A stretch of 10,894 nucleotides of DNA from a virus (Duplodnaviria > Heunggongvirae > Uroviricota > Caudoviricetes): IMG/VR virus record IMGVR_UViG_2660238349_000010, one strand, 5' to 3'. The notes beneath the pieces were generated by a model. It worked only from the letters and a program-made list of their open reading frames with translations. It ran no database searches and was not told the origin of the DNA. A program made the position numbers and the translations under genes. Below, piece after piece: positions 695-10,894 of this stretch (the stretch's first letter is position 1; each line of letters starts with the position of its first letter).

Positions 695-781
695 TGATGC
701 GCCGCGCGATAAATGCACTCTATCTTGTGCGATAAATGGCATCCACGCGGCGTTTCATTATTTGAAAAAGAATTACATTTC
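695..781. repeat. Putative transposable-phage right end (attR-like) with MuA-binding-site-like motifs
   Basis: Plus strand from 695 reads TGATGCGCCGCGCGATAAATGC... The first 22 bp match my recollection of the phage Mu right terminus (TGAAGCGGCGCACGAAAAACGC) at 17 of 22 positions. CGATAAATG occurs at 707-715 and again at 730-738, the second copy at almost the same distance from the end as the CGATAAATG block of Mu R2. A CGTTTCAT motif lies at 751-758. Comparison is from memory, not alignment. Confidence 0.5.
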
Positions 782-1345
782 AGGTTGCGTTATGACAGTC
801 CCAACAGGGTGGTAGCGGTAGATCGTTGACAGTCCAATATCATAGATAATTGCCAGCCGCTTTCTGTCATACCCTTTCTGGAGCAATCTTGCGATCTGCT
901 CATGCTGCTCCTTCGTCAGTTTCGGGCGACGTCCTCCAACTCTTCCTTGTGCTCGCGCAGCAGCCAGTCCTGCCAGCGTGCGCTCAACTATCAGTTCACG
1001 CTCCATTTCTGCCAGTGCACCCATCATATGAAAAAAGAACCTTCCCATCGGAGTGCTGGTATCGATTGAATCCGTCAGACTGCGAAAATTGACACCTTTT
1101 GCGCGTAGCTCTTCTGTGAGAGCAATGAGGTGTTTCATTCTTCTACCCAACCGATCCAGCTTCCAGACCACCAATGTATCCCCTCTTTTAAGGCACTTTA
1201 AAGCGCGTTTCAGGCCTGGTCGTTCCGACTTGGTTCCGCTCATTTTGTCCTCAAAAATCTGTTCACATCCTGCGCACATTAATGCATTGCGTTGCAAATC
1301 TGTGTTTTGGTCATTTGTTGACACACGTATGTAGCCAATCAGCAT
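773..1345 (-). CDS. pin: Serine recombinase, DNA invertase (Pin/Gin/Hin/Cin family)
   Basis: 190-aa product from ATG (minus) at 1345-1343, preceded by AGGGAG. N-terminus MLIGYIRVSTNDQNTDLQRNAL... with catalytic-serine motif, and C-terminal HTH region ...ELIVERTLAGLAAARAQGRVGGRRPKLT... typical of Hin/Gin invertases. The ORF-track extension to 1474 is rejected because the conserved invertase N-terminus starts at 1345 and the extension would run through the crossover site. Confidence 0.9.
   Translation of the reverse strand: MLIGYIRVSTNDQNTDLQRNALMCAGCEQIFEDKMSGTKSERPGLKRALKCLKRGDTLVVWKLDRLGRRMKHLIALTEELRAKGVNFRSLTDSIDTSTPMGRFFFHMMGALAEMERELIVERTLAGLAAARAQGRVGGRRPKLTKEQHEQIARLLQKGYDRKRLAIIYDIGLSTIYRYHPVGTVITQPEM
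1250..1335. promoter_or_regulatory. Putative Fis-dependent recombinational enhancer inside the 5' end of the invertase gene (position inferred by analogy)
   Basis: In Hin/Gin systems the enhancer lies in the first ~100 bp of the invertase coding sequence. The corresponding pin segment (sense: GTGTCAACAAATGACCAAAACACAGATTTGCAACGCAATGC) closely resembles what I recall of the hin enhancer region. Fis sites were not individually identified. Confidence 0.3.
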
Positions 1346-1399
1346 TAAAAATACTCCCTTTTGAGTGGTTAAAGTACTGAGATAATGTGGGGAGGATTT

Positions 1400-1425
1400 G
1401 AGAGATAAACGTTGGTTTGGGGGAA
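1400..1425 (+). other. Crossover site 1 (hix/gix-like, 12-bp half-sites around a 2-bp TT core), orientation +
   Basis: GAGAGATAAACG TT GGTTTGGGGGAA. Lies about 55 bp upstream of the pin start and exactly at the 5' boundary of cassette C. The right half-site is identical to that of site 3 on the opposite strand. Confidence 0.6.
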
Positions 1426-1920
1426 GGCTCTGCACTGCCTGTTGGTGTGCCTGTTCCATGGCCCACCGCCACACCGCCAGCAGGCTGGTTAAAGTGCGAC
1501 GGGCGCGCCTTTACAAAAGAACAATATCCTGTTCTGGCCAGAGTCTACCCGACCCTCCGTCTTCCCGATTTGCGCGGTGAGTTTATCCGTGGATGGGACG
1601 ACGGGCGCAAAGTTGATACGGGGCGTTCATTGCTAAGTGGTCAGGCTGCAACATTTATTCGTACAGCTTTGCAGGATTATTACGGTTACGATCTGAATAC
1701 TAATGTCAAAGTAGGTATCGCTTTTGCTACTGCTGATTCTGTTATAACCGTTGGAAACCCAGCTAATCCTAAAGCAGGAAATAATAGCGATTATGTTCCT
1801 GCATCAGCAGATAACTCTATAACGGGTATTCAAAGGACAGCGGAGGATAATTTTACCGGGGCATGGATATCAATGCGCCCCCGCAATGTTGCGTTTAATT
1901 ACATCGTAAGGGCCGCATAA
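1414..1920 (+). CDS. Silent alternative tail-fibre C-terminal cassette C (collar-domain tip); no start codon of its own, promoterless in this orientation
   Basis: Open frame from the site-1 core to TAA at 1918-1920 encoding GLGEGSALPVGVPVPWPTATPPAGWLKCDG...RPRNVAFNYIVRAA. The first ~70 aa and last ~14 aa are shared with the expressed fibre tip; the middle is divergent. Confidence 0.75.
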   Translation, partial: GLGEGSALPVGVPVPWPTATPPAGWLKCDGRAFTKEQYPVLARVYPTLRLPDLRGEFIRGWDDGRKVDTGRSLLSGQAATFIRTALQDYYGYDLNTNVKVGIAFATADSVITVGNPANPKAGNNSDYVPASADNSITGIQRTAEDNFTGAWISMRPRNVAFNYIVRAA

Positions 1921-1939
1921 AAACGTTGGTTTAGGAGAA
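1914..1939 (+). other. Crossover site 2 (hix/gix-like), orientation + (direct relative to site 1, inverted relative to site 3)
   Basis: CGCATAAAAACG TT GGTTTAGGAGAA. Overlaps the stop codon of cassette C and is the 5' boundary of cassette B. Confidence 0.55.
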
Positions 1940-2443
1940 GGCTCGGCGCTACCCGTTGGTGTGCCTGTTCCGTGGCCCACCGCCACACCGCCAGCAGGCT
2001 GGTTACAGTGCAACGGAGCTACGTTCACTAAAGAACAATATCCTGTTCTGGCCAGAGTCTACCCGACCCTCCGTCTTCCCGATTTACGCGGTGAGTTTAT
2101 CCGTGGATGGGACGACGGGCGCAAAGTTGATACAGGACGTAAGTTGCTGTCCGCACAAGGGGCAACGCTGTTAAGAACAGCAATGCTGGATTATTATAAC
2201 CAGGACACTACGGGAACCTCGGGGATAGTCGGCATGGGATTCAACAATGAAGATTCCATTACAGACCTTCGTGAGGGCAGCTTTAAAATGCCGGACGGGA
2301 CAACATTCAGCGATCCTGTCGTGGCAATGTCAGACAATGGTATGCAGGCTACTATTCTGACCTCTATCAGAAGCGGGTATGCGAAGGGTATCACTGTCAG
2401 ACCCCGTAGCATTGCACTTAATTACATTGTGAGGGCAGTTTAA
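1928..2443 (+). CDS. Silent alternative tail-fibre C-terminal cassette B (collar-domain tip), translationally coupled to the downstream tfa
   Basis: Open frame from the site-2 core encoding GLGEGSALPVGVPVPWPTATPPAGWLQCNGATF...RPRSIALNYIVRAV. Its TAA at 2441-2443 overlaps the tfa ATG at 2443 by 1 nt (TAATG). Its first ~200 bp are nearly identical to the reverse complement of 3330-3541. Confidence 0.75.
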   Translation, partial: GLGEGSALPVGVPVPWPTATPPAGWLQCNGATFTKEQYPVLARVYPTLRLPDLRGEFIRGWDDGRKVDTGRKLLSAQGATLLRTAMLDYYNQDTTGTSGIVGMGFNNEDSITDLREGSFKMPDGTTFSDPVVAMSDNGMQATILTSIRSGYAKGITVRPRSIALNYIVRAV

Positions 2444-3057
2444 TGAGTAACACTGCAGTTCTGGATGAAAACGGTATCGCCACTGTAGCGGGCGAGATCA
2501 CTGTATATCACTATGACGAGGAAACCCGGGAATACACCTCATCCTCTGTGGAGTATCTCGCCCTTGGGGTGGGTACTCCGGCACATTCGTGCGCCGATGC
2601 ACCGCCGGAGGCAATTTCGGGTTACGTGGTTTGCCGGACTGCCACGCTGAACGGGTGGGAGCATGTGCCTGATCACCGCGGCGAGACGGTATACAGCACG
2701 GAGAACGGTAACCCCGTTCTGATTACCCAACCGGGTGATTACCCGGCGGACACCACCACAAAACAGCCGGCCACGCCATGGGATACCTGGAACGGTGAGG
2801 CGTGGGTAACCGATACTGAACGGCAGCGAGCCGCAGAACTGGAGGTTGCCAGACAGCAACGCCAGCAACGGGTGAAACAGGCGATGGCGTCCGTCGATCT
2901 TATCAACCTCAAACTGCGTGCTGGTCGCAGTCTGACACCAGAAGAAACGGCAAAACTGAACGCCGTGCTGGATTATATCGACGAGCTGAACGCACTGGAT
3001 ATCAGCACGGCACCTGAAATCAGCTGGCCGGAAGCGCCACTGGCACTTGCCAGCTGA
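2443..3057 (+). CDS. tfa: Tail fibre assembly protein (Tfa/gpG/U-like chaperone), cognate to cassette B
   Basis: 204-aa ORF immediately after cassette B with stop/start overlap. Size, position and acidic C-terminal region (…LNAVLDYIDELNALD…) fit the tail-fibre-assembly family. Converges on the fibre gene, stop to stop, with a 6-bp gap. Confidence 0.7.
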   Translation: MSNTAVLDENGIATVAGEITVYHYDEETREYTSSSVEYLALGVGTPAHSCADAPPEAISGYVVCRTATLNGWEHVPDHRGETVYSTENGNPVLITQPGDYPADTTTKQPATPWDTWNGEAWVTDTERQRAAELEVARQQRQQRVKQAMASVDLINLKLRAGRSLTPEETAKLNAVLDYIDELNALDISTAPEISWPEAPLALAS

Positions 3058-3063
3058 ACGGTA

Positions 3064-4656
3064 TCACGCCGCCCTCACGATATAGTTAAACGCGATATTG
3101 CGGGGGCGGGTTATGTTAAAGAATGCTCCGTTTAATTCGGCTTTTGCGCGACTGTTTGTTCCACCCAGAATTGCGTACCACAAATAATCGCTACGGTAAT
3201 TCCCCGCAAACACCTTATCGCCGCCATAGTCAATATTATTTCCGTTACTCATGTACGAGATATCCAGCGAAGAATCGTTATCGTCATGACCGCCGACCAG
3301 TGTACCTTTCTGCCATGAAAGCAACTTACGCCCCTCGTCAATCTTGCGCCCGTCGTCCCATCCACGGATAAACTCACCGCGTAAATCGGGAAGACGGAGG
3401 GTCGGGTAGACTCTGGCCAGAACAGGATATTGTTCTTTGGTGAACGTAGCTCCGTTGCACTGTAACCAGCCTGCTGGCGGTGTGGCGGTGGGCCACGGAA
3501 CAGGCACACCAACAGGCAATGCAGAGCCTTCCCCCAAACCAAGGTAATTGAGGACATCTTTTATACTGCCCTTAGCGATAATAGCGCGACCAATAGCTGT
3601 AAGGGTTGCCAGCGCTGCGCGGTCTGCTCCGGTAAAATAAGGCAACCGATCTGCTGCAGTGGCAAGTCCTGCCAGAGCAGTGAGCGTGGCATCTGCCGGT
3701 TGTTTTCCGTTTGCCAGATCGTATGCAGCCTTGACCGCTTTCGGTGTGGCGGCCAGTATTTCAGACGTGCTGTTGATGGCACTGCTCAATTGTATGGTGC
3801 CTTTTGCCGTCAGCGAGGCAGCAGGCACTCCCGTTATCTGACTCCACGGGTGAGTGTGGCTGACGGGCGCCTTGCCGGCTGCAAGGTCGTATGCAGCCTT
3901 GACCGCCTTCGGCGTGGCAGCCTCAGTTTCTGATTGACTGTCCGTGGCGCTGCTCAGTTGTACGGTGCCTTTTGCCGTCAGCGAGGCAGCAGGCACTCCC
4001 GTTATCTGACTCCACGGGTGAGTGTGGCTGACGGGGGCCTTGCCGGCAGCCAGGTCATATGCAGCCTTGACGGCCTTTGGTGTGGCGGCCAGCGTTTCAG
4101 AGGTGCTGTTGGTGGCACTGCTCAGTTGTACGATCCCTTTACGGGTCGTTGTTGCATCCTGGGCTGTGTATTTTCCCCGGGCCAGATCATACGCGATTTT
4201 CACAGCCTTCGGCGTGGCAGCCTCAGTTTCTGATTGACTGTCCGTGGCACTGCTCAGCTGTACGGTGCCTTTTGCCGTCAGCGAGGCAGCAGGCACTCCC
4301 GTTATCTGACTCCACGGGTGAGTGTGACTGACGGGTGCCTTGCCGGCTGCAAGGTCGTATGCAGCCTTGACGGCTTTTGGTGTGGCGGCCAGCGTTTCAG
4401 AGGTGCTGTTGGTGGCACTGCTCAGTTGGGTGAACCCCTTAGCTGTCAGTGTCGCGTCCGGGTGGTTACGGGAACGTACGTGTTCAGCCAGTGACTGTGC
4501 GGCTTCCTCCGTTTTTTTCTTCAGCCATTTCGTCCTGTTTGCCAGTTGCCGGGGGGCTCGATTTGATATCCCGTCAGCACCACCCAGAACCGGATCTGAT
4601 GTCTCCAGTTGATAGATTTTTTCTTCCCACTTTTCTGTTTCATTCAGGTTTCCCAT
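3064..4656 (-). CDS. Tail fibre protein (P2 gpH-like N-terminus and shaft repeats; collar-domain C-terminal tip = cassette A currently fused)
   Basis: 530 aa from ATG (minus) at 4656-4654; the ORF track starts 2 codons earlier at TTG 4662. Overlaps the gpI stop. Five copies of the motif TAKGxxQLSSATxSxSETxAATPKAVKxAYDLAxGK, and ...KQPADATLTALAGLATAADRLPYFTG..., recalled as characteristic of P2 H. C-terminal 159 aa after site 3 form the variable tip. Confidence 0.9.
   Translation of the reverse strand: MGNLNETEKWEEKIYQLETSDPVLGGADGISNRAPRQLANRTKWLKKKTEEAAQSLAEHVRSRNHPDATLTAKGFTQLSSATNSTSETLAATPKAVKAAYDLAAGKAPVSHTHPWSQITGVPAASLTAKGTVQLSSATDSQSETEAATPKAVKIAYDLARGKYTAQDATTTRKGIVQLSSATNSTSETLAATPKAVKAAYDLAAGKAPVSHTHPWSQITGVPAASLTAKGTVQLSSATDSQSETEAATPKAVKAAYDLAAGKAPVSHTHPWSQITGVPAASLTAKGTIQLSSAINSTSEILAATPKAVKAAYDLANGKQPADATLTALAGLATAADRLPYFTGADRAALATLTAIGRAIIAKGSIKDVLNYLGLGEGSALPVGVPVPWPTATPPAGWLQCNGATFTKEQYPVLARVYPTLRLPDLRGEFIRGWDDGRKIDEGRKLLSWQKGTLVGGHDDNDSSLDISYMSNGNNIDYGGDKVFAGNYRSDYLWYAILGGTNSRAKAELNGAFFNITRPRNIAFNYIVRAA
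3529..3554 (-). other. Crossover site 3 (hix/gix-like) inside the fibre gene at the constant/variable junction
   Basis: Minus strand reads TCCTCAATTACC TT GGTTTGGGGGAA, encoding LNYLGLGE. The core TT sits in the same codon positions as in sites 1 and 2, so either inversion gives an in-frame fusion. Confidence 0.6.
3700..4450 (-). repeat. In-frame coding tandem repeats of the fibre shaft (units of 36/56/44/56/56 aa)
   Basis: Near-identical DNA blocks, for example about 3900-4030 versus 4200-4330 (about 130 bp with about 3 mismatches, 300 bp apart). Visible in the ORF track as a repeating plus-strand shadow ORF (MTVRG[A/T]AQLYGAFCRQRGSRHSRYLTPRVSV...) at 3934 and 4234. Confidence 0.85.
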
Positions 4657-4658
4657 AA

Positions 4659-5237
4659 TCAACTGCTCCCGTGGTTATAACTGCCATCATGGATGGCGGT
4701 ATTGTTATAGCGAATGGCCACAGACTGATACTCCAGGCTGGCCAGATGGCAGCGGGCCGGTGCAAATGCAGCGAGCGTCTGACGCAGCATCGCGGCCTGA
4801 TCGTTAGTAATGGGCTGTTTCAGAATAACGCGATAAACCGCCCAGGCGGCTGCATCTCCATGAACAAACAGTCCGTTATAGCTGCGATTGCCGTCGTAAC
4901 TGAGACGACCTGTGCCTTCAATCAGATCCACTTCACCAAAGCCAAAACGGCGGATAACTTCCCGGATTGACCACGGCGTCCCTTTATACCGGTGTAGTTC
5001 GATGGCTGCTTTTATAAGCATGCGGCGAACATCGTCCGATTCCGCCAGCTCCCAGCCATCGCCAGACAGTGAGAACTGCTCGCCCAGCCATGGCAGCGCA
5101 GAACTGTCGACGATATCGACGAGAAAGACCATCAGTACGCTCAGGTCGATGTTATCCAGCCGCCCTGCCAGTCTTCCCAGCGTCCTGAGACTGATATCAC
5201 CCTCAAGCGGTGGCGGGAGTTGTAATGGCTCAGTCAT
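4659..5237 (-). CDS. Baseplate/tail protein gpI-like (Mu gp48 position)
   Basis: 192 aa from ATG at 5237-5235 (ORF track starts at GTG 5249). The ATG overlaps the gpJ-like stop (ATGACTGA). Position between the J-like gene and the fibre gene matches P2 I and Mu gp48. Family call from synteny and size. Confidence 0.7.
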   Translation of the reverse strand: MTEPLQLPPPLEGDISLRTLGRLAGRLDNIDLSVLMVFLVDIVDSSALPWLGEQFSLSGDGWELAESDDVRRMLIKAAIELHRYKGTPWSIREVIRRFGFGEVDLIEGTGRLSYDGNRSYNGLFVHGDAAAWAVYRVILKQPITNDQAAMLRQTLAAFAPARCHLASLEYQSVAIRYNNTAIHDGSYNHGSS

Positions 5238-6333
5238 CAGACACTCCACTCATGTTAAGTGTGATCGCCGTACAGTTTGCCCATTCGTTTTCTGCCACCA
5301 CCCTCAGTGCCGGTGTCACCAGTTCAACCTGGTACACCCCGGAAACGGACAATGCACTGATAATCTGGCTGGGGACAATATCACGCCCCAGCGTGGCGGC
5401 ACGTGATGCCACCCAGTTCTGTATGGCGCTGTTAGCGGCATCTTTTACAGACCTGGCATCCTGATCACGATAGATCGTAATCCTGGCTTCAATGGTGTAA
5501 TCCACCTTCACTGGTGTTTTAGCCCGCACTGTATCAGTGAGTGGCCTGACTTTCTCATCAGAGCAGAAACTCTCTACCAGCGTGAGAACACCGCCGTCCG
5601 GCAGACCGGTACTGAGCAGCGGATACAGATCTACGGTCCCGGGAACCGGGGAAAGCACAGCAACATCGACAATGTTGGGATGGGCCTGCATGGCATGAAA
5701 GCGGTATGCGCCACGGCTTCCGGCATTGGTGAATGACTCCGGGGCCAGCCTGATACGCTCCCGGAGCCTGTCATCGTCTTCCTGTTCTGAACCGCCGGAA
5801 CTGGCCGTCAGATTGCTCACCAGCAGGTCGACGTTATCAATCTCATCGAGTAACTGACTGACCTGCGCAGGTTGCCAGCCGTTACCAGCGGTACCGGGTT
5901 CGGTACAGGTGGACGTGACATTGACCAGCAGCAATCCGGCCTTCAGTACCACATCTGTATCGGTGGCAAAAATAACGCTGTCGGAAGCGCTGACGCGGGT
6001 GCCTGCCGGGATCAGCACATCAATGGTCAGTGCCTCATCCACAGAGAACTGAAGTGTGGTGGTGGCAGGCTGCGCGGCAAGGCGGTATACACCAACCAGT
6101 TCTCCGAGGTAATCAATCATCGGCTCTCGTGAAAAGGCGACCAGATTCTGCTTTGCTGCCTCCTGTACCGCAACCCTGACCAGCATTTCGCGATAGGCCC
6201 ACAGATCAATCAGCAGACGTTCTGCCTGTGCCGGGTACAGCGTTTTGCCGGTATCCGCTTCATACTTCGCAATCATTTCTGCCGTGATTTTGTCGGCATC
6301 GCGTTCAATAAAATCGGGTTCTGTCAGCGCCAT
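5230..6333 (-). CDS. Baseplate assembly protein gpJ-like (Mu gp47 position)
   Basis: 367-aa ORF whose start overlaps the gpW-like stop by 10 nt. Size and position fit baseplate J. Family call from synteny and size, moderate. Confidence 0.75.
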   Translation of the reverse strand: MALTEPDFIERDADKITAEMIAKYEADTGKTLYPAQAERLLIDLWAYREMLVRVAVQEAAKQNLVAFSREPMIDYLGELVGVYRLAAQPATTTLQFSVDEALTIDVLIPAGTRVSASDSVIFATDTDVVLKAGLLLVNVTSTCTEPGTAGNGWQPAQVSQLLDEIDNVDLLVSNLTASSGGSEQEDDDRLRERIRLAPESFTNAGSRGAYRFHAMQAHPNIVDVAVLSPVPGTVDLYPLLSTGLPDGGVLTLVESFCSDEKVRPLTDTVRAKTPVKVDYTIEARITIYRDQDARSVKDAANSAIQNWVASRAATLGRDIVPSQIISALSVSGVYQVELVTPALRVVAENEWANCTAITLNMSGVSDD

Positions 6334-6671
6334 AGCAACTCCTGAGTCCGGGTCTGTCCGTCTGAGCCTTTCCAGCTCACCCGGAGCGTAAGATGTTCGC
6401 CGTCGACGGCGGGTTTAACTGACATAAGCTGGCAGCGGGGCTCCCAGCGTCGGATGGCATCGACGGATTCGCGCACCACATGCGGAATGGCCCGGTCTAC
6501 AGGCCAGTCGATATAAAGATGCAGATTGCTGCCGAACTCCGGGCGATGCGGGTCGCTGCCGCGGGGAGTCCGCAGGATAATTTGAATCGCCTGCCGGATA
6601 TCATCCAGCCCCCGGACAATTTCGCCGGGAGCCTGCAGGGTCGGTTGCCAGAATACTGAGGTTGTTTTCAT
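6324..6671 (-). CDS. Baseplate protein gpW / gp25-like (Mu gp46 position)
   Basis: 115-aa ORF, the typical size of the GPW_gp25 family, sitting between the spike and J-like genes. Confidence 0.75.
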   Translation of the reverse strand: MKTTSVFWQPTLQAPGEIVRGLDDIRQAIQIILRTPRGSDPHRPEFGSNLHLYIDWPVDRAIPHVVRESVDAIRRWEPRCQLMSVKPAVDGEHLTLRVSWKGSDGQTRTQELLWR

Positions 6672-6725: not shown

Positions 6726-7322
6726 TCAGTGGGAGTGGTGGCTGGAGTTTTCGCCATCAGACAACATACTGCCCGTGGCATGGGCATTCCCTTTAATCTC
6801 GATATTGCCATGGATGGTCGCGGTAACACCTTCACCACCAGAACCCGCCATGCCTCCTTCGTAAATCAGCTTACCCCTGACACGCAGATCTCCGGTAAGT
6901 TCGGTTTCCGGTGCGTCAATCGTGGCTTTCTGTGTTTTCAATACCACATCAGCACCACACTCAATGACAATATGCTCAATGCCGCCCCGGATGATCAGAG
7001 TGTGCGTCTTCCGGTTGTAGCTGTACTCTGCACCATCAGCAAACCGGGTTCCCCGGATATTTTTGTCACTGAACGGTGGTTTATCGACGTCTGAATACAC
7101 CGCGCCCAGAATAACACCATCCTCGCCGTTGGCATCGAGCAGCACCTCAACCTGCTCCCCCACGTCAGGGAGCCAGTAATCTTTGTTATCCTGGGTATTG
7201 CGCTGCAGCACGTTAAGCCAGTTTGTGCGCAGGTTATCGCATTCAGGCAGACGAACGCGGGCCTGAACCCTGTCGGCATCAACGGCACTGACCGTACCGA
7301 CCTGACGAGTGACACCAGTCAT
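6726..7322 (-). CDS. Baseplate spike protein gpV-like (Mu gp45 position)
   Basis: 198-aa ORF whose ATG overlaps the gpD-like stop (ATGA). Size matches Mu gp45 / P2 V spikes. C-terminus ends ...SDGENSSHHSH (His cluster). Confidence 0.75.
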   Translation of the reverse strand: MTGVTRQVGTVSAVDADRVQARVRLPECDNLRTNWLNVLQRNTQDNKDYWLPDVGEQVEVLLDANGEDGVILGAVYSDVDKPPFSDKNIRGTRFADGAEYSYNRKTHTLIIRGGIEHIVIECGADVVLKTQKATIDAPETELTGDLRVRGKLIYEGGMAGSGGEGVTATIHGNIEIKGNAHATGSMLSDGENSSHHSH

Positions 7323-8491
7323 TTTTTCTTCTCTCTTATTACTGTGGACGTGCTGCCGTCCGGTTTATAGATGGTCAGCATCCGGGTTTTGCCGATTTTT
7401 TTACCTTTCTTCGCCTTGCCCTGTGTGATCGGCCCCCGTGCCACTTCCAGCTCTGTGGTGTAGCCGCTGTTACGGTCAAACGCATGGCGGGCAGTGGTTA
7501 TGAGCCATGGCCCGGATAACTGCCCAAAACCCACCAGTTCAATTTTGTTGCCTGCTGTCAGTTGAGGTGTTCCCGTCAGCGTCAGGGAGCCGTTCTGCTG
7601 GTATTCGTTATGTCTGGCCAGTGCTGAATCCGCTTTAATCCGGGCACTGTCCGGGTCGCTGACGCGGCTGTTAACTTTAAGTGAGTCAGCGCTGGTAACC
7701 TTACCACCTTTGAGCTTTTTGTCGCTTTCACGGGTACCACCATCAGCTTCGTAGACGATCAGTTTTTTACTGCTGCTTTTCTGGTGTTTTACCTTTGCAG
7801 ATTTATAGACCCGGTTGATGGTGTCACGCAGGGAAAAGCGGGCCACATCCTGCGGTTTTAACTGCCTGACCGGCTCCTGACTGCGCAGTGTGGCCAGATG
7901 AGAAAAAATCAGCTGGTCACTGACCACTTTCACTGCATAACCATACTCGCTGGCCAGCCGGCGCAGAAAACCCACGTCGGTTTCAGCATACTGGGTCACC
8001 CGGTCGATTCTGATGGACTCAATGCTGCCCACCAGTTTCAGCCGGTGCTTTCTGGCAATCCGCCCCGCAACAGCTGCCAGCGTGGTGTTCTCAAAACCAC
8101 GACTGGTTTTAGTCCGCAGGGCACTGTTAACCGAGGTGGCCACCCCACGGATAGAAACAACGGAAGCGGGCGAACTCACTTCGATCTCGTCTATAGAGAA
8201 CGTACCGCAGGACAGCAGCTTCTCGTCCTGATAGCCCATTTTCAGCGTCAGCGTGTCACCCTTGCCCGGATACCACTTATCCAGCCAGCGGCCATCGGTG
8301 TCGTCCAGCTCCACCTCAATGGTATCGGACTCATTTTTGATGTTATCGCTCCAGGTCACACGGGTGACATAAGGCGCGATATCAGAGGTGATGTTTTTCT
8401 GCAGATACCACAGAGTGAACACCGGTGTCAGCACATCGCTGACGCCGGTTAACGCTGATGTGACTTGCGCAGTGCTGTTTATCTCAGCCAT
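7319..8491 (-). CDS. Baseplate hub / late control protein gpD-like (Mu gp44 position)
   Basis: 390-aa ORF, close to the 387 aa of P2 gpD. C-terminal ...NSGYTTELEVARGP... resembles the gpD family. Sits between gpX-like and the spike. Confidence 0.8.
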   Translation of the reverse strand: MAEINSTAQVTSALTGVSDVLTPVFTLWYLQKNITSDIAPYVTRVTWSDNIKNESDTIEVELDDTDGRWLDKWYPGKGDTLTLKMGYQDEKLLSCGTFSIDEIEVSSPASVVSIRGVATSVNSALRTKTSRGFENTTLAAVAGRIARKHRLKLVGSIESIRIDRVTQYAETDVGFLRRLASEYGYAVKVVSDQLIFSHLATLRSQEPVRQLKPQDVARFSLRDTINRVYKSAKVKHQKSSSKKLIVYEADGGTRESDKKLKGGKVTSADSLKVNSRVSDPDSARIKADSALARHNEYQQNGSLTLTGTPQLTAGNKIELVGFGQLSGPWLITTARHAFDRNSGYTTELEVARGPITQGKAKKGKKIGKTRMLTIYKPDGSTSTVIREKKK

Positions 8492-9575: not shown

Positions 9576-10894
9576 CAGCGGTACTCCTTACGTTGTTTCT
9601 GAGCCAGCAGACGCTCCAGCATTTTTTCCAGCTCATGCAGACTCATATTCAGGGCACCAGTCAGTCCTGCAGGCGCTGTGGTTTCCCTGCCATTGAGGAA
9701 AAACTGAGGATTAAAGCTGACCTGGATACCACCAGACGTTCCACCGCCGGTTGCAGCTGCACCACGGCCTGAATATCCGGCAGCCAGGATTTCAGGCGAG
9801 GGGATACGGGGAACATCCGGTGTCATCTCATTTGCCAGACGTTGCCCTGGTAAAATCGATGCCCGGGTGGAGAGCGGAATAACGGGCATGGAAGACAAAC
9901 TATTGATTACGGCTCCGATCGCATTTTTAGCAGACGACATAAACCCATTGATATCGGGCAACGGCATACTGAAGCGAACACCTGAAGTGTTATCCCGTAT
10001 TTCTGGCCCCTGAATGCTCACGGGCATTCTGGGGAGCAGTTCACTGGCCATTCGCTGCCCGGCCAGAGCTGCAAGCGGAGTGGTCCGCTGCAGGCCAATG
10101 GCGGCCCCCTGCGCGATATTGTCACCAAAGCCCATAAACACGCGGCTCGGCGAATGAATGCCCAGCTTTTCGCTGAACCAGCCACTGATGCTGTCACCCA
10201 TTCCGGTTACACTGGATTTGAGCGACTCCCATTTGTTTTTGATACCGTTAATCAGACCGTCGACAAGATGGCCACCGAAGTCGGTGAACTTTGCCGGCAG
10301 ATCAACACCAAGATATTTCAGCGCAGCTGCAAAGGCTTTATAGAGCAGACCTGCCGGCGACCAGTTAATCAGCAGCTTACCAGTTCCCGCGATACCGCCG
10401 TTAAAGGCTTCCTGAATGTCAGCCCAGCACTGTTTAAACCAGCTACTGATGCTGTCACCCATTCCGGTTACACTGGATTTGAGCGACCCCCATTTGTTTT
10501 TGATACCGTTAATCAGACCGTCGATAAGATGGCCACCGAAGTCGGTGAACTTTGCCGGCAGAGCAACGCCGAAATATTTCAGCGCAGCCGCAAAGGCTTT
10601 ATAGAGCAGGCCTGCCGGCGACCAGTTAATCAGCAACTTACCAATTCCCACAATGCCGCCGTTAAAGGCTTCCTGAATGTCAGCCCAGCGCTGTTTAAAC
10701 CAGCTACTGATGCTGTCACCCATTCCGGTTACACTGGATTTGAGCGACCCCCATTTGATTTTGATACCGTTAATCAGACCGTCGATAAGATGGCCACCGA
10801 AGTCGGTGAACTTTGCCGGCAGAGCAACGCCGAAATATTTCAGCGCAGCCGCAAAGGCTTTATAGAGCAGGCCTGCCGGCGACCAGTTAATCAG
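9575..10894 (-). CDS. Tail tape measure protein, 3' part (5' end lies beyond the window)
   Basis: Long minus-strand frame open to the window edge, directly upstream of the gpU/X/D genes. Contains 87-aa tandem repeats and a Gly/Ala-rich C-terminal region. Assignment rests on synteny and repeat architecture. Confidence 0.7.
   Translation of the reverse strand: MINWSPAGLLYKAFAAALKYFGVALPAKFTDFGGHLIDGLINGIKIKWGSLKSSVTGMGDSISSWFKQRWADIQEAFNGGIVGIGKLLINWSPAGLLYKAFAAALKYFGVALPAKFTDFGGHLIDGLINGIKNKWGSLKSSVTGMGDSISSWFKQCWADIQEAFNGGIAGTGKLLINWSPAGLLYKAFAAALKYLGVDLPAKFTDFGGHLVDGLINGIKNKWESLKSSVTGMGDSISGWFSEKLGIHSPSRVFMGFGDNIAQGAAIGLQRTTPLAALAGQRMASELLPRMPVSIQGPEIRDNTSGVRFSMPLPDINGFMSSAKNAIGAVINSLSSMPVIPLSTRASILPGQRLANEMTPDVPRIPSPEILAAGYSGRGAAATGGGTSGGIQVSFNPQFFLNGRETTAPAGLTGALNMSLHELEKMLERLLAQKQRKEYR
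10174..10894 (-). repeat. 261-bp (87-aa) in-frame tandem repeat array within the tape-measure gene, truncated by the window end
   Basis: Units at about 10174-10434, 10435-10695 and 10696-10894+ with only a few substitutions. Seen in the ORF track as plus-strand shadow ORFs at 10158, 10416 and 10677, all containing ...LNQ[L/P]LMLSPIPVTLDLSD... Confidence 0.85.

Follow-up and report, generated by a model that had tools for sequence, protein, structure and literature searches.

Tail fibres set the host range of phages, and attention has gone mostly to their tips. The locus described here raises the question of whether the shaft can change as well, through stepwise gain and loss of repeat units while the rest of the phage stays the same. 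The window (the whole stretch of 10,894 nucleotides that was analysed, IMG/VR virus record IMGVR_UViG_2660238349_000010, Caudoviricetes) belongs to a BcepMu-like transposable phage with a P2-type baseplate, not to P2 itself; its relative PhiKM is classified as Bcepmuvirus. A sequence-only reading of the window had proposed that in-frame repeat amplification in the tail-fibre gene is a route to fibre-length variation independent of the tip switch. Comparison between assemblies of strains, as opposed to within one culture, indicates with a probability of roughly 80% that the shaft array is a coding minisatellite of Phage_fiber_2 modules, whose in-frame gain and loss would give otherwise identical phages differing in shaft length.

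The fibre gene is preceded on the minus strand by the baseplate genes V, W, J, and I, which are recognised from Tail_P2_I and from RefSeq names on identical proteins. Its reading frame starts at an ATG at 4656 (the program-made ORF list runs on to a TTG at 4662), and the gene is 99.9% identical in EC11, where RefSeq names the product a phage tail protein with the start MGNL. The Pfam content according to hmmscan is five copies of Phage_fiber_2 (PF03406), with 307 bits against a cut-off of 22 over five stretches (E 1.1e-93), and a Collar domain; many tail-fibre PHROGs match as well. The N-terminus is matched by phrog_10372 and phrog_3100, and its sequence MGNLNETEKW... is the same in 68 database proteins, which have 5-11 repeats. 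PF12571 (Phage_tail_fib), the N-terminal domain of P2 gpH, has no match in the window fibre at E ≤ 0.01. In a PDB sequence search, the tip matches 2xgf and the short tail fibre 9cuy, and the repeats yield only one-unit matches, to Mu gpS entries.

Table 1. Features of the tail-fibre locus, in positions of the window.
Feature	Position	Strand	Content or basis
Tip-switch region	773..3057	mixed	Resolvase + HTH_7, Collar, Caudo_TAP domains; repeats
Serine invertase	773-1345	-	Resolvase + HTH_7
Alternative tip cassettes (two)	1417-1920, 1961-2443	+	Collar; repeats
Tail-fibre assembly gene (one)	2443-3057	+	Caudo_TAP
Tail-fibre gene	3064..4656	-	530 aa; ORF list, Pfam
Currently expressed receptor-binding tip, collar + T4 gp37-like needle	3064..3545	-	Collar domain; PDB 2xgf gp37, E 9e-14
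Inverted-repeat arm in fibre gene, first 229 nt of tip	3317-3545	-	tip switch
Constant segment between array and invertible region (TALAGLATAADRLPYFTG...)	3546..3681	-	homologous to equivalent P2 gpH segment
Unit 5	3682..3813	-	terminal type A variant (AINSTSEILAATPKAVKAAYDLANGKQPADATL), 44 aa
Unit 4	3814..3981	-	type B core + long linker, 56 aa
Unit 3	3982..4149	-	type A core + long linker, 56 aa
Unit 2	4150..4281	-	type B core (DSQSETEAATPKAVKIAYDLA) + short linker (RGKYTAQDAT), 44 aa
Unit 1	4282..4449	-	type A core (NSTSETLAATPKAVKAAYDLA) + long linker (GKAPVSHTHPWSQITGVPAAS), 56 aa
Homology block copy 2	3905..4128	-	most of unit 3 + start of unit 4
Homology block copy 1	4205..4428	-	most of unit 1 + start of unit 2
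Constant N-terminal 69 aa, putative baseplate-attachment part	4450..4656	-	common to all copy-number alleles

The array occupies 3682-4449, in agreement with the 3700-4450 first proposed, and consists of five Phage_fiber_2 units of 44 or 56 residues with two alternating core types. The count of five copies is borne out both by the QLSSA motif, which occurs five times in the fibre, and by the five PF03406 stretches. A repeat search of the window returns a 282-nt family with a spacing of 300 nt. Compared base by base, the two homology blocks are identical at 216 of 224 positions (96.4%), a match that far exceeds chance; all eight mismatches are third-position changes in their codons and leave the encoded peptides identical. 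The original description of blocks about 98% identical and 300 bp apart was right about the pair and its spacing, and essentially right but slightly generous about the identity, which is 126/131 (96.2%) for 3900-4030 versus 4200-4330 and reaches 98.4% (120/122) in the best sub-stretch, 3905-4026. The remaining unit pairs share only 60-87% DNA identity, so the array combines old, diverged units with one younger duplication of 300-nt period (1.75 copies). Divergence between units is overwhelmingly synonymous, in the 224-nt block as well as at third positions in its flanks, so the protein modules are under purifying selection. The array periods (132, 168, 300, and 336 nt) are all multiples of three. 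No Chi sites, sought as recombination hotspots, occur in the array. An AlphaFold2 monomer of residues 60-340 (mean pLDDT 37, pTM 0.16) is unusable for the fold or the rise per module; this low-confidence model suggests a short helix at TPKAVKAAYDL in every unit.

The prophage is present in about 586 of 5426 complete E. coli genomes (approximately a tenth), including many clinical ST131 strains. Array length was read from the span between the matches of a query in which both array flanks were joined and the array removed, with the constant segment at 3546..3681 as downstream anchor. The 103 census rows, out of about 586 loci and with clonal clinical lineages such as ST131 over-represented, contain arrays of 468, 600, 768 (the window), 804, 936, 1068, 1140, 1200, and 1368 nt, corresponding to 3-9 units. 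Among the best 60 rows, the lengths are 1068 nt (33 rows), 768 (13), 804 (6), 1368 (2), 1140 (2), 936 (1), and 600 (1); in two further rows of this set (H60 and H77), the span misses a multiple of three by 1-2 nt, which may reflect flank indels or assembly errors. When rows are drawn evenly from along the ranking, the lengths are 468 nt (25 rows), 1140 (6), 768 (5), 1068 (3), 804 (2), 600 (1), and 1200 (1). PF03406 stretches number 9 in CD306, 7 in P0022, 6 in P0041 and P0054, 11 in P0001, and 3 in PhiKM, an isolated phage.

Homologous fibres are therefore not uniform five-copy proteins with normal divergence between units, the pattern that had been set against the proposal; they range from 3 to 9 units in E. 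coli and from 5 to 11 in the protein database. The term "expanded" suits the window array when the yardstick is the 3-unit allele or the two units of P2 gpH. It does not apply within the window's own family, where five units are low to middle, and among the closest relatives (the best 60 rows) the 7-unit allele is commoner than the 5-unit allele, 33 versus 13. The reading frame is intact in each of the 11 alleles from other strains for which the fibre was translated (eight genomes and three more). By core type and linker, the alleles form a series, AL-BL-A, AL-Bs-AL-A, AL-Bs-AL-BL-A, AL-(Bs-AL)2-BL-A, and AL-(Bs-AL)3-BL-A, alongside variants with periods of 168 and 336 nt, and the type of unit 5 is the last unit of all alleles examined. 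The shaft thus varies stepwise. Since these changes are located upstream of the region that inverts, they are, as had been claimed, independent of the tip switch.

Alleles of different length occur on the same flanks. The window, EC11, EBJ003, and CD306, with 5, 5, 7, and 9 units, respectively, have identical upstream flanks over 2600 nt, and those of AR_0013 (3 units) and B771 (8 units) differ at only five positions. Both flank groups differ internally in unit number, so changes have happened repeatedly, in two or more haplotype groups. Across the compared alleles with 3-9 units, the 2600-nt flanks have 0-33 differences. Between the window and CD306, 5924 nt upstream are 99.95% identical and 3735 nt downstream 99.5% identical, with the CD306 array longer by exactly 600 nt; the flanking proteins of EC11 (530-aa fibre) and CD306 (730 aa) have identical RefSeq accessions.

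The 300-nt unit amplified in the 7-, 8-, and 9-unit alleles is made up of units 2 and 3, with at most 1 nt of difference between the added units and their neighbours. In EBJ003, an offset-300 run of 524 nt has no mismatches beyond the eight of the window, and the added unit thus contributes none. The longest near-identical neighbour stretch in the longer alleles, in elppa9, has eight mismatches in 824 nt; DETEC-S566, with a 336-nt period, has five in 710, and B771 has five in 779. In CD306, the 300-nt units in the middle of the array are hybrid and differ mutually by 1 nt in 300, with a 5′ part resembling copy 2 of the window block and a 3′ part resembling copy 1: they carry the copy-2 variants at the eight marker sites, apart from a private base that one unit has at one site, and their 3′ end is of the copy-1 type. 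This pattern places the join inside the homology block, at its 3′ end, as expected from unequal recombination or slippage. With whole-unit differences, a conserved frame, and near-identical added units, the locus fits a copy-number-polymorphic coding tandem repeat. At the level of sequence, the variation of fibre length through repeat gain and loss is real and of a known kind, and the amplification originally proposed is supported.

The duplication within the window is itself older. With eight synonymous changes in 224 nt (3.6%), it predates the spread and diversification of the prophage haplotype, and the very recent events are those seen in other strains. The 5-unit allele could be either the progenitor or a contraction product of the commoner 7-unit allele. 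Its origin by simple duplication of the 3-unit allele was considered and rejected, since the unit 2-3 junction (short linker and TTRKGIV) is missing from the 3-unit form; the latter is explained more simply by deletion from one homology block to the other.

A mechanism consistent with these comparisons would start from the long near-identical DNA between neighbouring units (224 nt at 96% in the window), which would act as a substrate for misalignment. Whole modules would then be added or removed when sister or replicating copies recombine homologously out of register, or through slippage during replication, and periods that are multiples of three would leave the reading frame unbroken. The outcome would be shafts that range from 3 to 9 modules within the prophage lineage of the window and reach 11 in the wider family, while the attachment part at the N-terminus and the receptor-binding tip, switched by the invertase, remain the same. 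At the molecular level, either RecA-dependent unequal exchange or slippage may be responsible. Every module would presumably lengthen the trimeric shaft, and length may matter for reaching receptors through O-antigen or capsule.

The explanation that survives best alongside this one accepts the polymorphism as real yet regards it as functionally neutral: repetitive coding DNA would unavoidably gain and lose units, the shaft would accept any module number, and that number would have no role in host range. Its chances fall somewhat short of even. Many of the prophages show decay: for instance, V carries a frameshift in FDN-4, W is interrupted by an internal stop in AR_0013, and the tape-measure gene of CD306 is truncated. 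Periods divisible by three keep the frame without selection. The purifying selection read from synonymous divergence weighs against neutrality, but it bears on the sequence of the modules and not on selection for their number; fibre duplications and length haplotypes that track infectivity or killing spectrum do so too, but in other systems and not for module number here. The opposite proposal, that the array is a hypermutable length-tuning locus in which several fibre lengths are kept and the same tips reach their receptor through O-antigen or capsule of varied thickness, is doubtful. Were it true, host recognition would vary on two independent axes, reach (by copy number) and specificity (by inversion), and the polymorphic 87-residue repeat of the tape-measure protein might likewise vary tail length. 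If length affects access to receptors under O-antigen or capsule, repeat number would be a simple engineerable parameter in phage and tailocin design and also a marker worth recording in prophage typing.

Exchange with other tail-fibre genes in the same cell (prophages, P1-like plasmids, or P2-like phages) is an improbable source of the length changes. Fibre DNA does have a median of four matching places per genome, 147 of those on plasmids, and the repeats (8-13 copies) and the tip recur at 60-85% identity in fibres with three other N-termini, the P1-like MNDVTV and MGADKT on ~95-kb contigs and the P2-like MSTRKF, which has PF12571. The unit 2-3 junction (GKYTAQDATTTRKGIVQLSSATNSTSE) also resembles the unit 1-2 junction of P2 gpH, which suggests an older mosaic exchange. 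However, DNA imported at 60-85% identity would bring many mismatches, whereas the added units are identical to their own neighbours or 1 nt off, and contain lineage-specific variants such as APASHTHP and AINSTSETL in all B771 copies, and the alleles step through n, n+1, and n+2 copies of a single 300-nt unit on zero-difference flanks. Finally, it is hardly credible that all strains really have an identical array and that assembly has collapsed or expanded a 300-nt repeat: tandem repeats of this length at 96-100% identity are hard for short-read assemblers, two census rows are 1-2 nt off frame, and PGAP fragments the 3- and 4-unit alleles, but the records are RefSeq "complete genome" assemblies, the major alleles recur in many independent genomes (at least 33 rows of 1068 nt, 13 of 768 nt, and 25 of 468 nt), the translated alleles are all intact and orderly in architecture, including both that PGAP fragments, the periods differ by lineage (168, 300, and 336 nt), and the isolated phage PhiKM has the 3-unit form.

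Gain and loss of modules in the shaft can be set beside several known systems. P2 gpH (AF063097, 669 aa) belongs to the same PF03406 family and has exactly two Phage_fiber_2 stretches, as the sequence-only reading had indicated, against five in the window fibre; both P2 units are of 44 aa, without long-linker or type B units. Its units (LTAKGFTQLSSATNSTSETLAATPKAVKAAYDLANGKYTAQDAT) are almost identical to the type A unit of the window, and the two fibres share the post-array segment (TALAGLATAADR.PYFTG). They differ at their ends: gpH has a PF12571 N-terminus (193 bits), another C-terminal tip, and no invertase switch, whereas the window fibre has no PF12571 and a collar/gp37-like tip. The V-W-J-I-H order of P2 corresponds to V-W-J-I-fibre here, but P2 G is co-oriented, whereas the assembly gene of the window lies in the invertible segment and is convergent in the present orientation.

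The tip switch itself fits a Gin/Cin/Pin/Min-type system, in that the invertase adjoins inverted repeats inside the fibre gene and alternative cassettes. The repeats I1 and I2 are 226-229 nt long and 90-93% complementary. The tip is flipped in B771 and elppa9, and both orientations occur among strains. Mu (S/U, Gin) likewise has a serine invertase, long inverted repeats in the fibre gene, alternative C-terminal cassettes, and an assembly gene, and its gpS structures (5yvq, 8ju3, 9ki1) match one repeat unit of the window. P1 (Cin) and p15B (Min) have a comparable invertible tail-fibre arrangement. In contrast to these invertible systems, the window has three tips and one assembly gene, and its length variation concerns the constant part of the fibre, upstream of the switch, and proceeds by copy number rather than inversion.

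Coding minisatellites and contingency loci in bacterial surface proteins, as well as the adenovirus fibre shaft, have an in-frame module number that sets fibre length and is changed by unequal recombination or slippage; these are other proteins and folds, which the window fibre resembles in its in-frame repeat polymorphism. Among phages, Enterococcus phage EfV12-phi1 has in-frame tandem fibre duplications upstream of the receptor-binding part, with a copy number variable in the population (Wandro et al. 2019, PMC6365445). According to the same paper, which cites Tetart et al. 1996 for duplications of a small domain of T4 gp37, the EfV12-phi1 and T4 duplications arose de novo in the laboratory from a single-copy source (1.8 kb and a small tip domain, respectively) and were selected by resistant hosts (PMC6365445). 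The substrate here is instead a pre-existing natural repeat family, known from strain comparison. In Pseudomonas tailocins, discrete fibre-gene length classes coexist in a natural population and correlate with killing spectrum and sensitivity (bioRxiv 10.1101/2023.04.17.536465). The likeness is in the length classes of one contractile-tail element, which in the prophage are classes of repeat copy number. In the part of the literature naming Phage_fiber_2 that was covered, the name is confined to tables or serves to label a modelling target, with no discussion of copy-number variation; literature on BcepMu-like E. coli prophages, Sandmeier's motif work, and Mu fibre structures held nothing specific to the window array.

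Two observations accompany these results. The tape-measure gene has a polymorphic in-frame repeat of 261 nt (87 residues) in two or three copies, whose number does not co-vary with that of the fibre repeat in four strains (3/5, 3/7, 2/8, and 2/7). In practical terms, repeat arrays of this kind are easily mis-assembled, and in annotation PGAP breaks the short alleles, splitting those with 3 and 4 units into "partial" pseudogenes or fragments despite their intact ORFs.

The tail-fibre gene of the window contains five Phage_fiber_2 (PF03406) stretches (307 bits, Pfam), in agreement with the five shaft repeats proposed by the sequence-only reading. The units alternate between two core types, A (NSTSETLAAT) and B (DSQSETEAAT), with long (L) or short (s) linkers, giving the architecture AL-Bs-AL-BL-A. 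Most unit pairs share only 60-87% DNA identity. The closest block, 3905-4128 versus 4205-4428, is identical at 216 of 224 positions; all eight differences fall at third codon positions, and the encoded peptides are identical. The identity of about 98% initially claimed holds over 3905-4026 (98.4%) but drops to 96.2% for 3900-4030 versus 4200-4330, and the statement that P2 gpH, the tail fibre of phage P2, has about two repeats is borne out by the two found there. The repeats themselves are confirmed.

Features of the window
Feature	Position	Strand
yccA, host gene	1-660	
Serine invertase	773-1345	minus
Alternative tip cassette	1417-1920	plus
Alternative tip cassette	1961-2443	plus
Tail-fibre assembly gene	2443-3057	plus
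Fibre gene, 530 aa	3064-4656 (ORF call extends to TTG at 4662)	minus
Unit 5, 44 aa	3682-3813	minus
Unit 4, 56 aa	3814-3981	minus
Unit 3, 56 aa	3982-4149	minus
Unit 2, 44 aa	4150-4281	minus
Unit 1, 56 aa	4282-4449	minus
I	4659-5249	minus
J	5230-6333	minus
W	6324-6671	minus
V	6726-7322	minus
294-aa tail protein, tail protein X, gpD-like protein	7319-8491	minus
Tape-measure gene	9575 to beyond 10894	minus

The tail module is encoded on the minus strand. Near-identical prophages adjoin ybaP in strain CD306 (locus L001, 9084-10474) and a truncated yqhA in EC11 (L002, 9318-10423), and the prophage end in the window (region 1-772) adjoins intact yccA. These differing neighbours are consistent with a Mu/BcepMu-like transposable phage inserting at many sites. 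Because near-identical copies occupy other chromosomal sites and PhiKM, a related phage isolate, has been assigned to Bcepmuvirus, the element is not P2 itself but a BcepMu-like transposable prophage that has a P2-type baseplate.

In a protein search, 68 clusters had the N-terminus of the window fibre and 5-11 repeats, and fibres with P1-like or P2-like N-termini had 8-13; the hits are ranked by score, which biases the list towards long arrays. To reduce this bias, a 2965-nt query was built from 2600 nt upstream and 365 nt downstream of the array, with the array left out, and array length was taken as locus span minus query length. The locus occurs in 586 of 5426 complete E. coli genomes, the polymorphic prophage being carried by about a tenth of them. 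The counts from two samples place the window allele among the common ones, yet toward the short end of the range. The off-frame spans, 1067 nt in H60 (NZ_CP147551.1) and 1066 nt in H77 (NZ_CP014488.1) versus 1068, may reflect assembly errors or 1-2-nt indels, either within the array or in its flanks.

Array lengths in the best 60 of the 586 rows (flanks at least 98.9% identical) and in 43 full-locus rows evenly spaced across the list
Length (nt)	Best 60	Even 43
468	0	25
600	1	1
768 (window allele)	13	5
804	6	2
936	1	0
1066-1067 (off frame)	2	0
1068	33	3
1140	2	6
1200	0	1
1368	2	0

Fibre alleles from other strains, namely eight census representatives, CD306, EC11, and PhiKM, were translated, and all 11 are intact ORFs. 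RefSeq/PGAP breaks the 4-unit (L009, 2892-4118) and 3-unit (L011, 2892-3986) alleles into "incomplete; partial" pseudogene fragments; their frames run from a normal start to a normal stop (474 and 430 aa, respectively), and the split looks like an annotation artefact of the shorter array. Several related prophages bear marks of decay elsewhere: CD306 has a truncated tape-measure gene (L001, 1-254), FDN-4 a frameshifted V (L010, 29-624), and AR_0013 an internal stop in W (L011, 679-1026). Some prophages with the polymorphic fibre probably do not form particles.

Architectures of the fibre alleles
Units	Source	Architecture
3	AR_0013, PhiKM	AL-BL-A
4	E300010	AL-Bs-AL-A
5	window, EC11	AL-Bs-AL-BL-A
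5	E8	AL-AL-BL-AL-A
6	FDN-4	AL-Bs-AL-BL-AL-A
7	EBJ003	AL-(Bs-AL)2-BL-A
7	DETEC-S566	AL-(BL-AL)2-BL-A
8	B771	AL-(Bs-AL)3-A
9	CD306, elppa9	AL-(Bs-AL)3-BL-A

Several comparisons point to recent, intragenic changes in the array. Between the window and CD306, identity is 99.95% in the 5924 nt upstream of the array and 99.5% in the 3735 nt downstream, with an array length difference of exactly 600 nt; the proteins neighbouring the fibre have identical RefSeq accessions in EC11 and CD306. The 2600-nt upstream flank shows no differences among the window, EC11, EBJ003, and CD306, which carry 5, 5, 7, and 9 units, and only 5 nt separate AR_0013 (3 units) from B771 (8 units). Added units match their neighbours almost exactly: the 524-nt offset-300 run of EBJ003 has no mismatches beyond the 8 of the window block, elppa9 has 8 in 824 nt and CD306 has 9, B771 has 5 in 779 nt, and DETEC-S566 has 5 in 710 nt with a 336-nt period. 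Import of length differences from other fibre genes is at odds with these identical additions. It is plausible for older mosaic history, as repeats and tips are common to P1-like, P2-like, and other fibres, and fibre matches fall at a median of four places per genome.

Amplification within the array, or homogenisation, is expected to place lineage-specific substitutions in every copy within a lineage, as seen for APASHTHP and AINSTSETL in B771. In CD306, the middle units are hybrids that combine the window copy-2 (3905-4128) variants at eight marker sites, apart from a private base at one site of one unit, with a short-linker 3′ end of the copy-1 (4205-4428) type. From this pattern, the units were joined where the homology block is identical at its 3′ end, between the marker at offset 200 and offset 245 within the 300-nt unit. 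The two window blocks differ at eight sites, all synonymous (3.6%), which is more than the prophages diverge in their flanks (0-1.3%), so the first 300-nt duplication predates the spread of the window haplotype. The window allele may have given rise to the 7-unit allele, or may have arisen from it by contraction. The short-linker/TTRKGIV junction is absent from the 3-unit allele, for which a deletion between the two homology blocks is the simplest origin. The simplest reading is that in-register units misalign during homologous recombination or slip during replication, with mechanism, rate, and RecA dependence all putative. All periods are multiples of three, and the frame is therefore kept in every event. 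A search of the array for a Chi site found none.

Prior knowledge covers the repeat family, its occurrence in fibres of P2, Mu, and P1 type, and the duplication of fibre genes in general. Among the precedents, an Enterococcus phage gains in-frame fibre duplications of 1.8 kb during coevolution (PMC6365445, which also cites duplicated domains in T4 gp37, Tetart 1996), and tailocin fibre length haplotypes track killing spectrum (bioRxiv 10.1101/2023.04.17.536465). None of the papers searched describes this population-level polymorphism of 3-9 modules on identical prophage backgrounds. The array is a clean, well-supported case of a known type of variation with a putative functional meaning. Since the array separates the N-terminal attachment part from the switchable tip, copy number should alter shaft length only. 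Functional neutrality of the length differences is a possible reading; the purifying selection seen here concerns the module sequence. Assembly artefacts are an unlikely source of the array-length differences, as each allele is found again across many complete genomes, with orderly unit architectures that keep the frame.

The invertible region lies downstream of the fibre gene, and inverted repeats of 226-229 nt (90-93% complementary) tie its cassettes to 3317-3545 within that gene. The region 773-3545 holds three alternative tips versus one assembly gene. The tip joined to the fibre in the window (3064-3545) resembles the T4 gp37 collar/needle (2xgf, E 9e-14). In the window orientation, the assembly gene is convergent with the fibre, leaving the expressed tip without a co-oriented chaperone. 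The region is flipped in B771 and elppa9, where the assembly gene comes directly 3′ of the fibre.

The tape-measure gene also carries an in-frame tandem repeat of 261 nt (87 aa; 96% identity; 10176-10894), with at least 2.8 copies up to the window end. There are 3.0 copies in the 3213-nt gene of EC11 (L014, 2398-3193), whose length and RefSeq protein accession are shared by EBJ003, and 2.0 in the 2952-nt genes of B771 and DETEC-S566 (L016, 923-1457, and L017, 1032-1566). Fibre and tape-measure repeat numbers showed no co-variation in four strains. Since tail length is normally set by tape-measure length, the difference in copy number might change the tail by a single 87-residue step.
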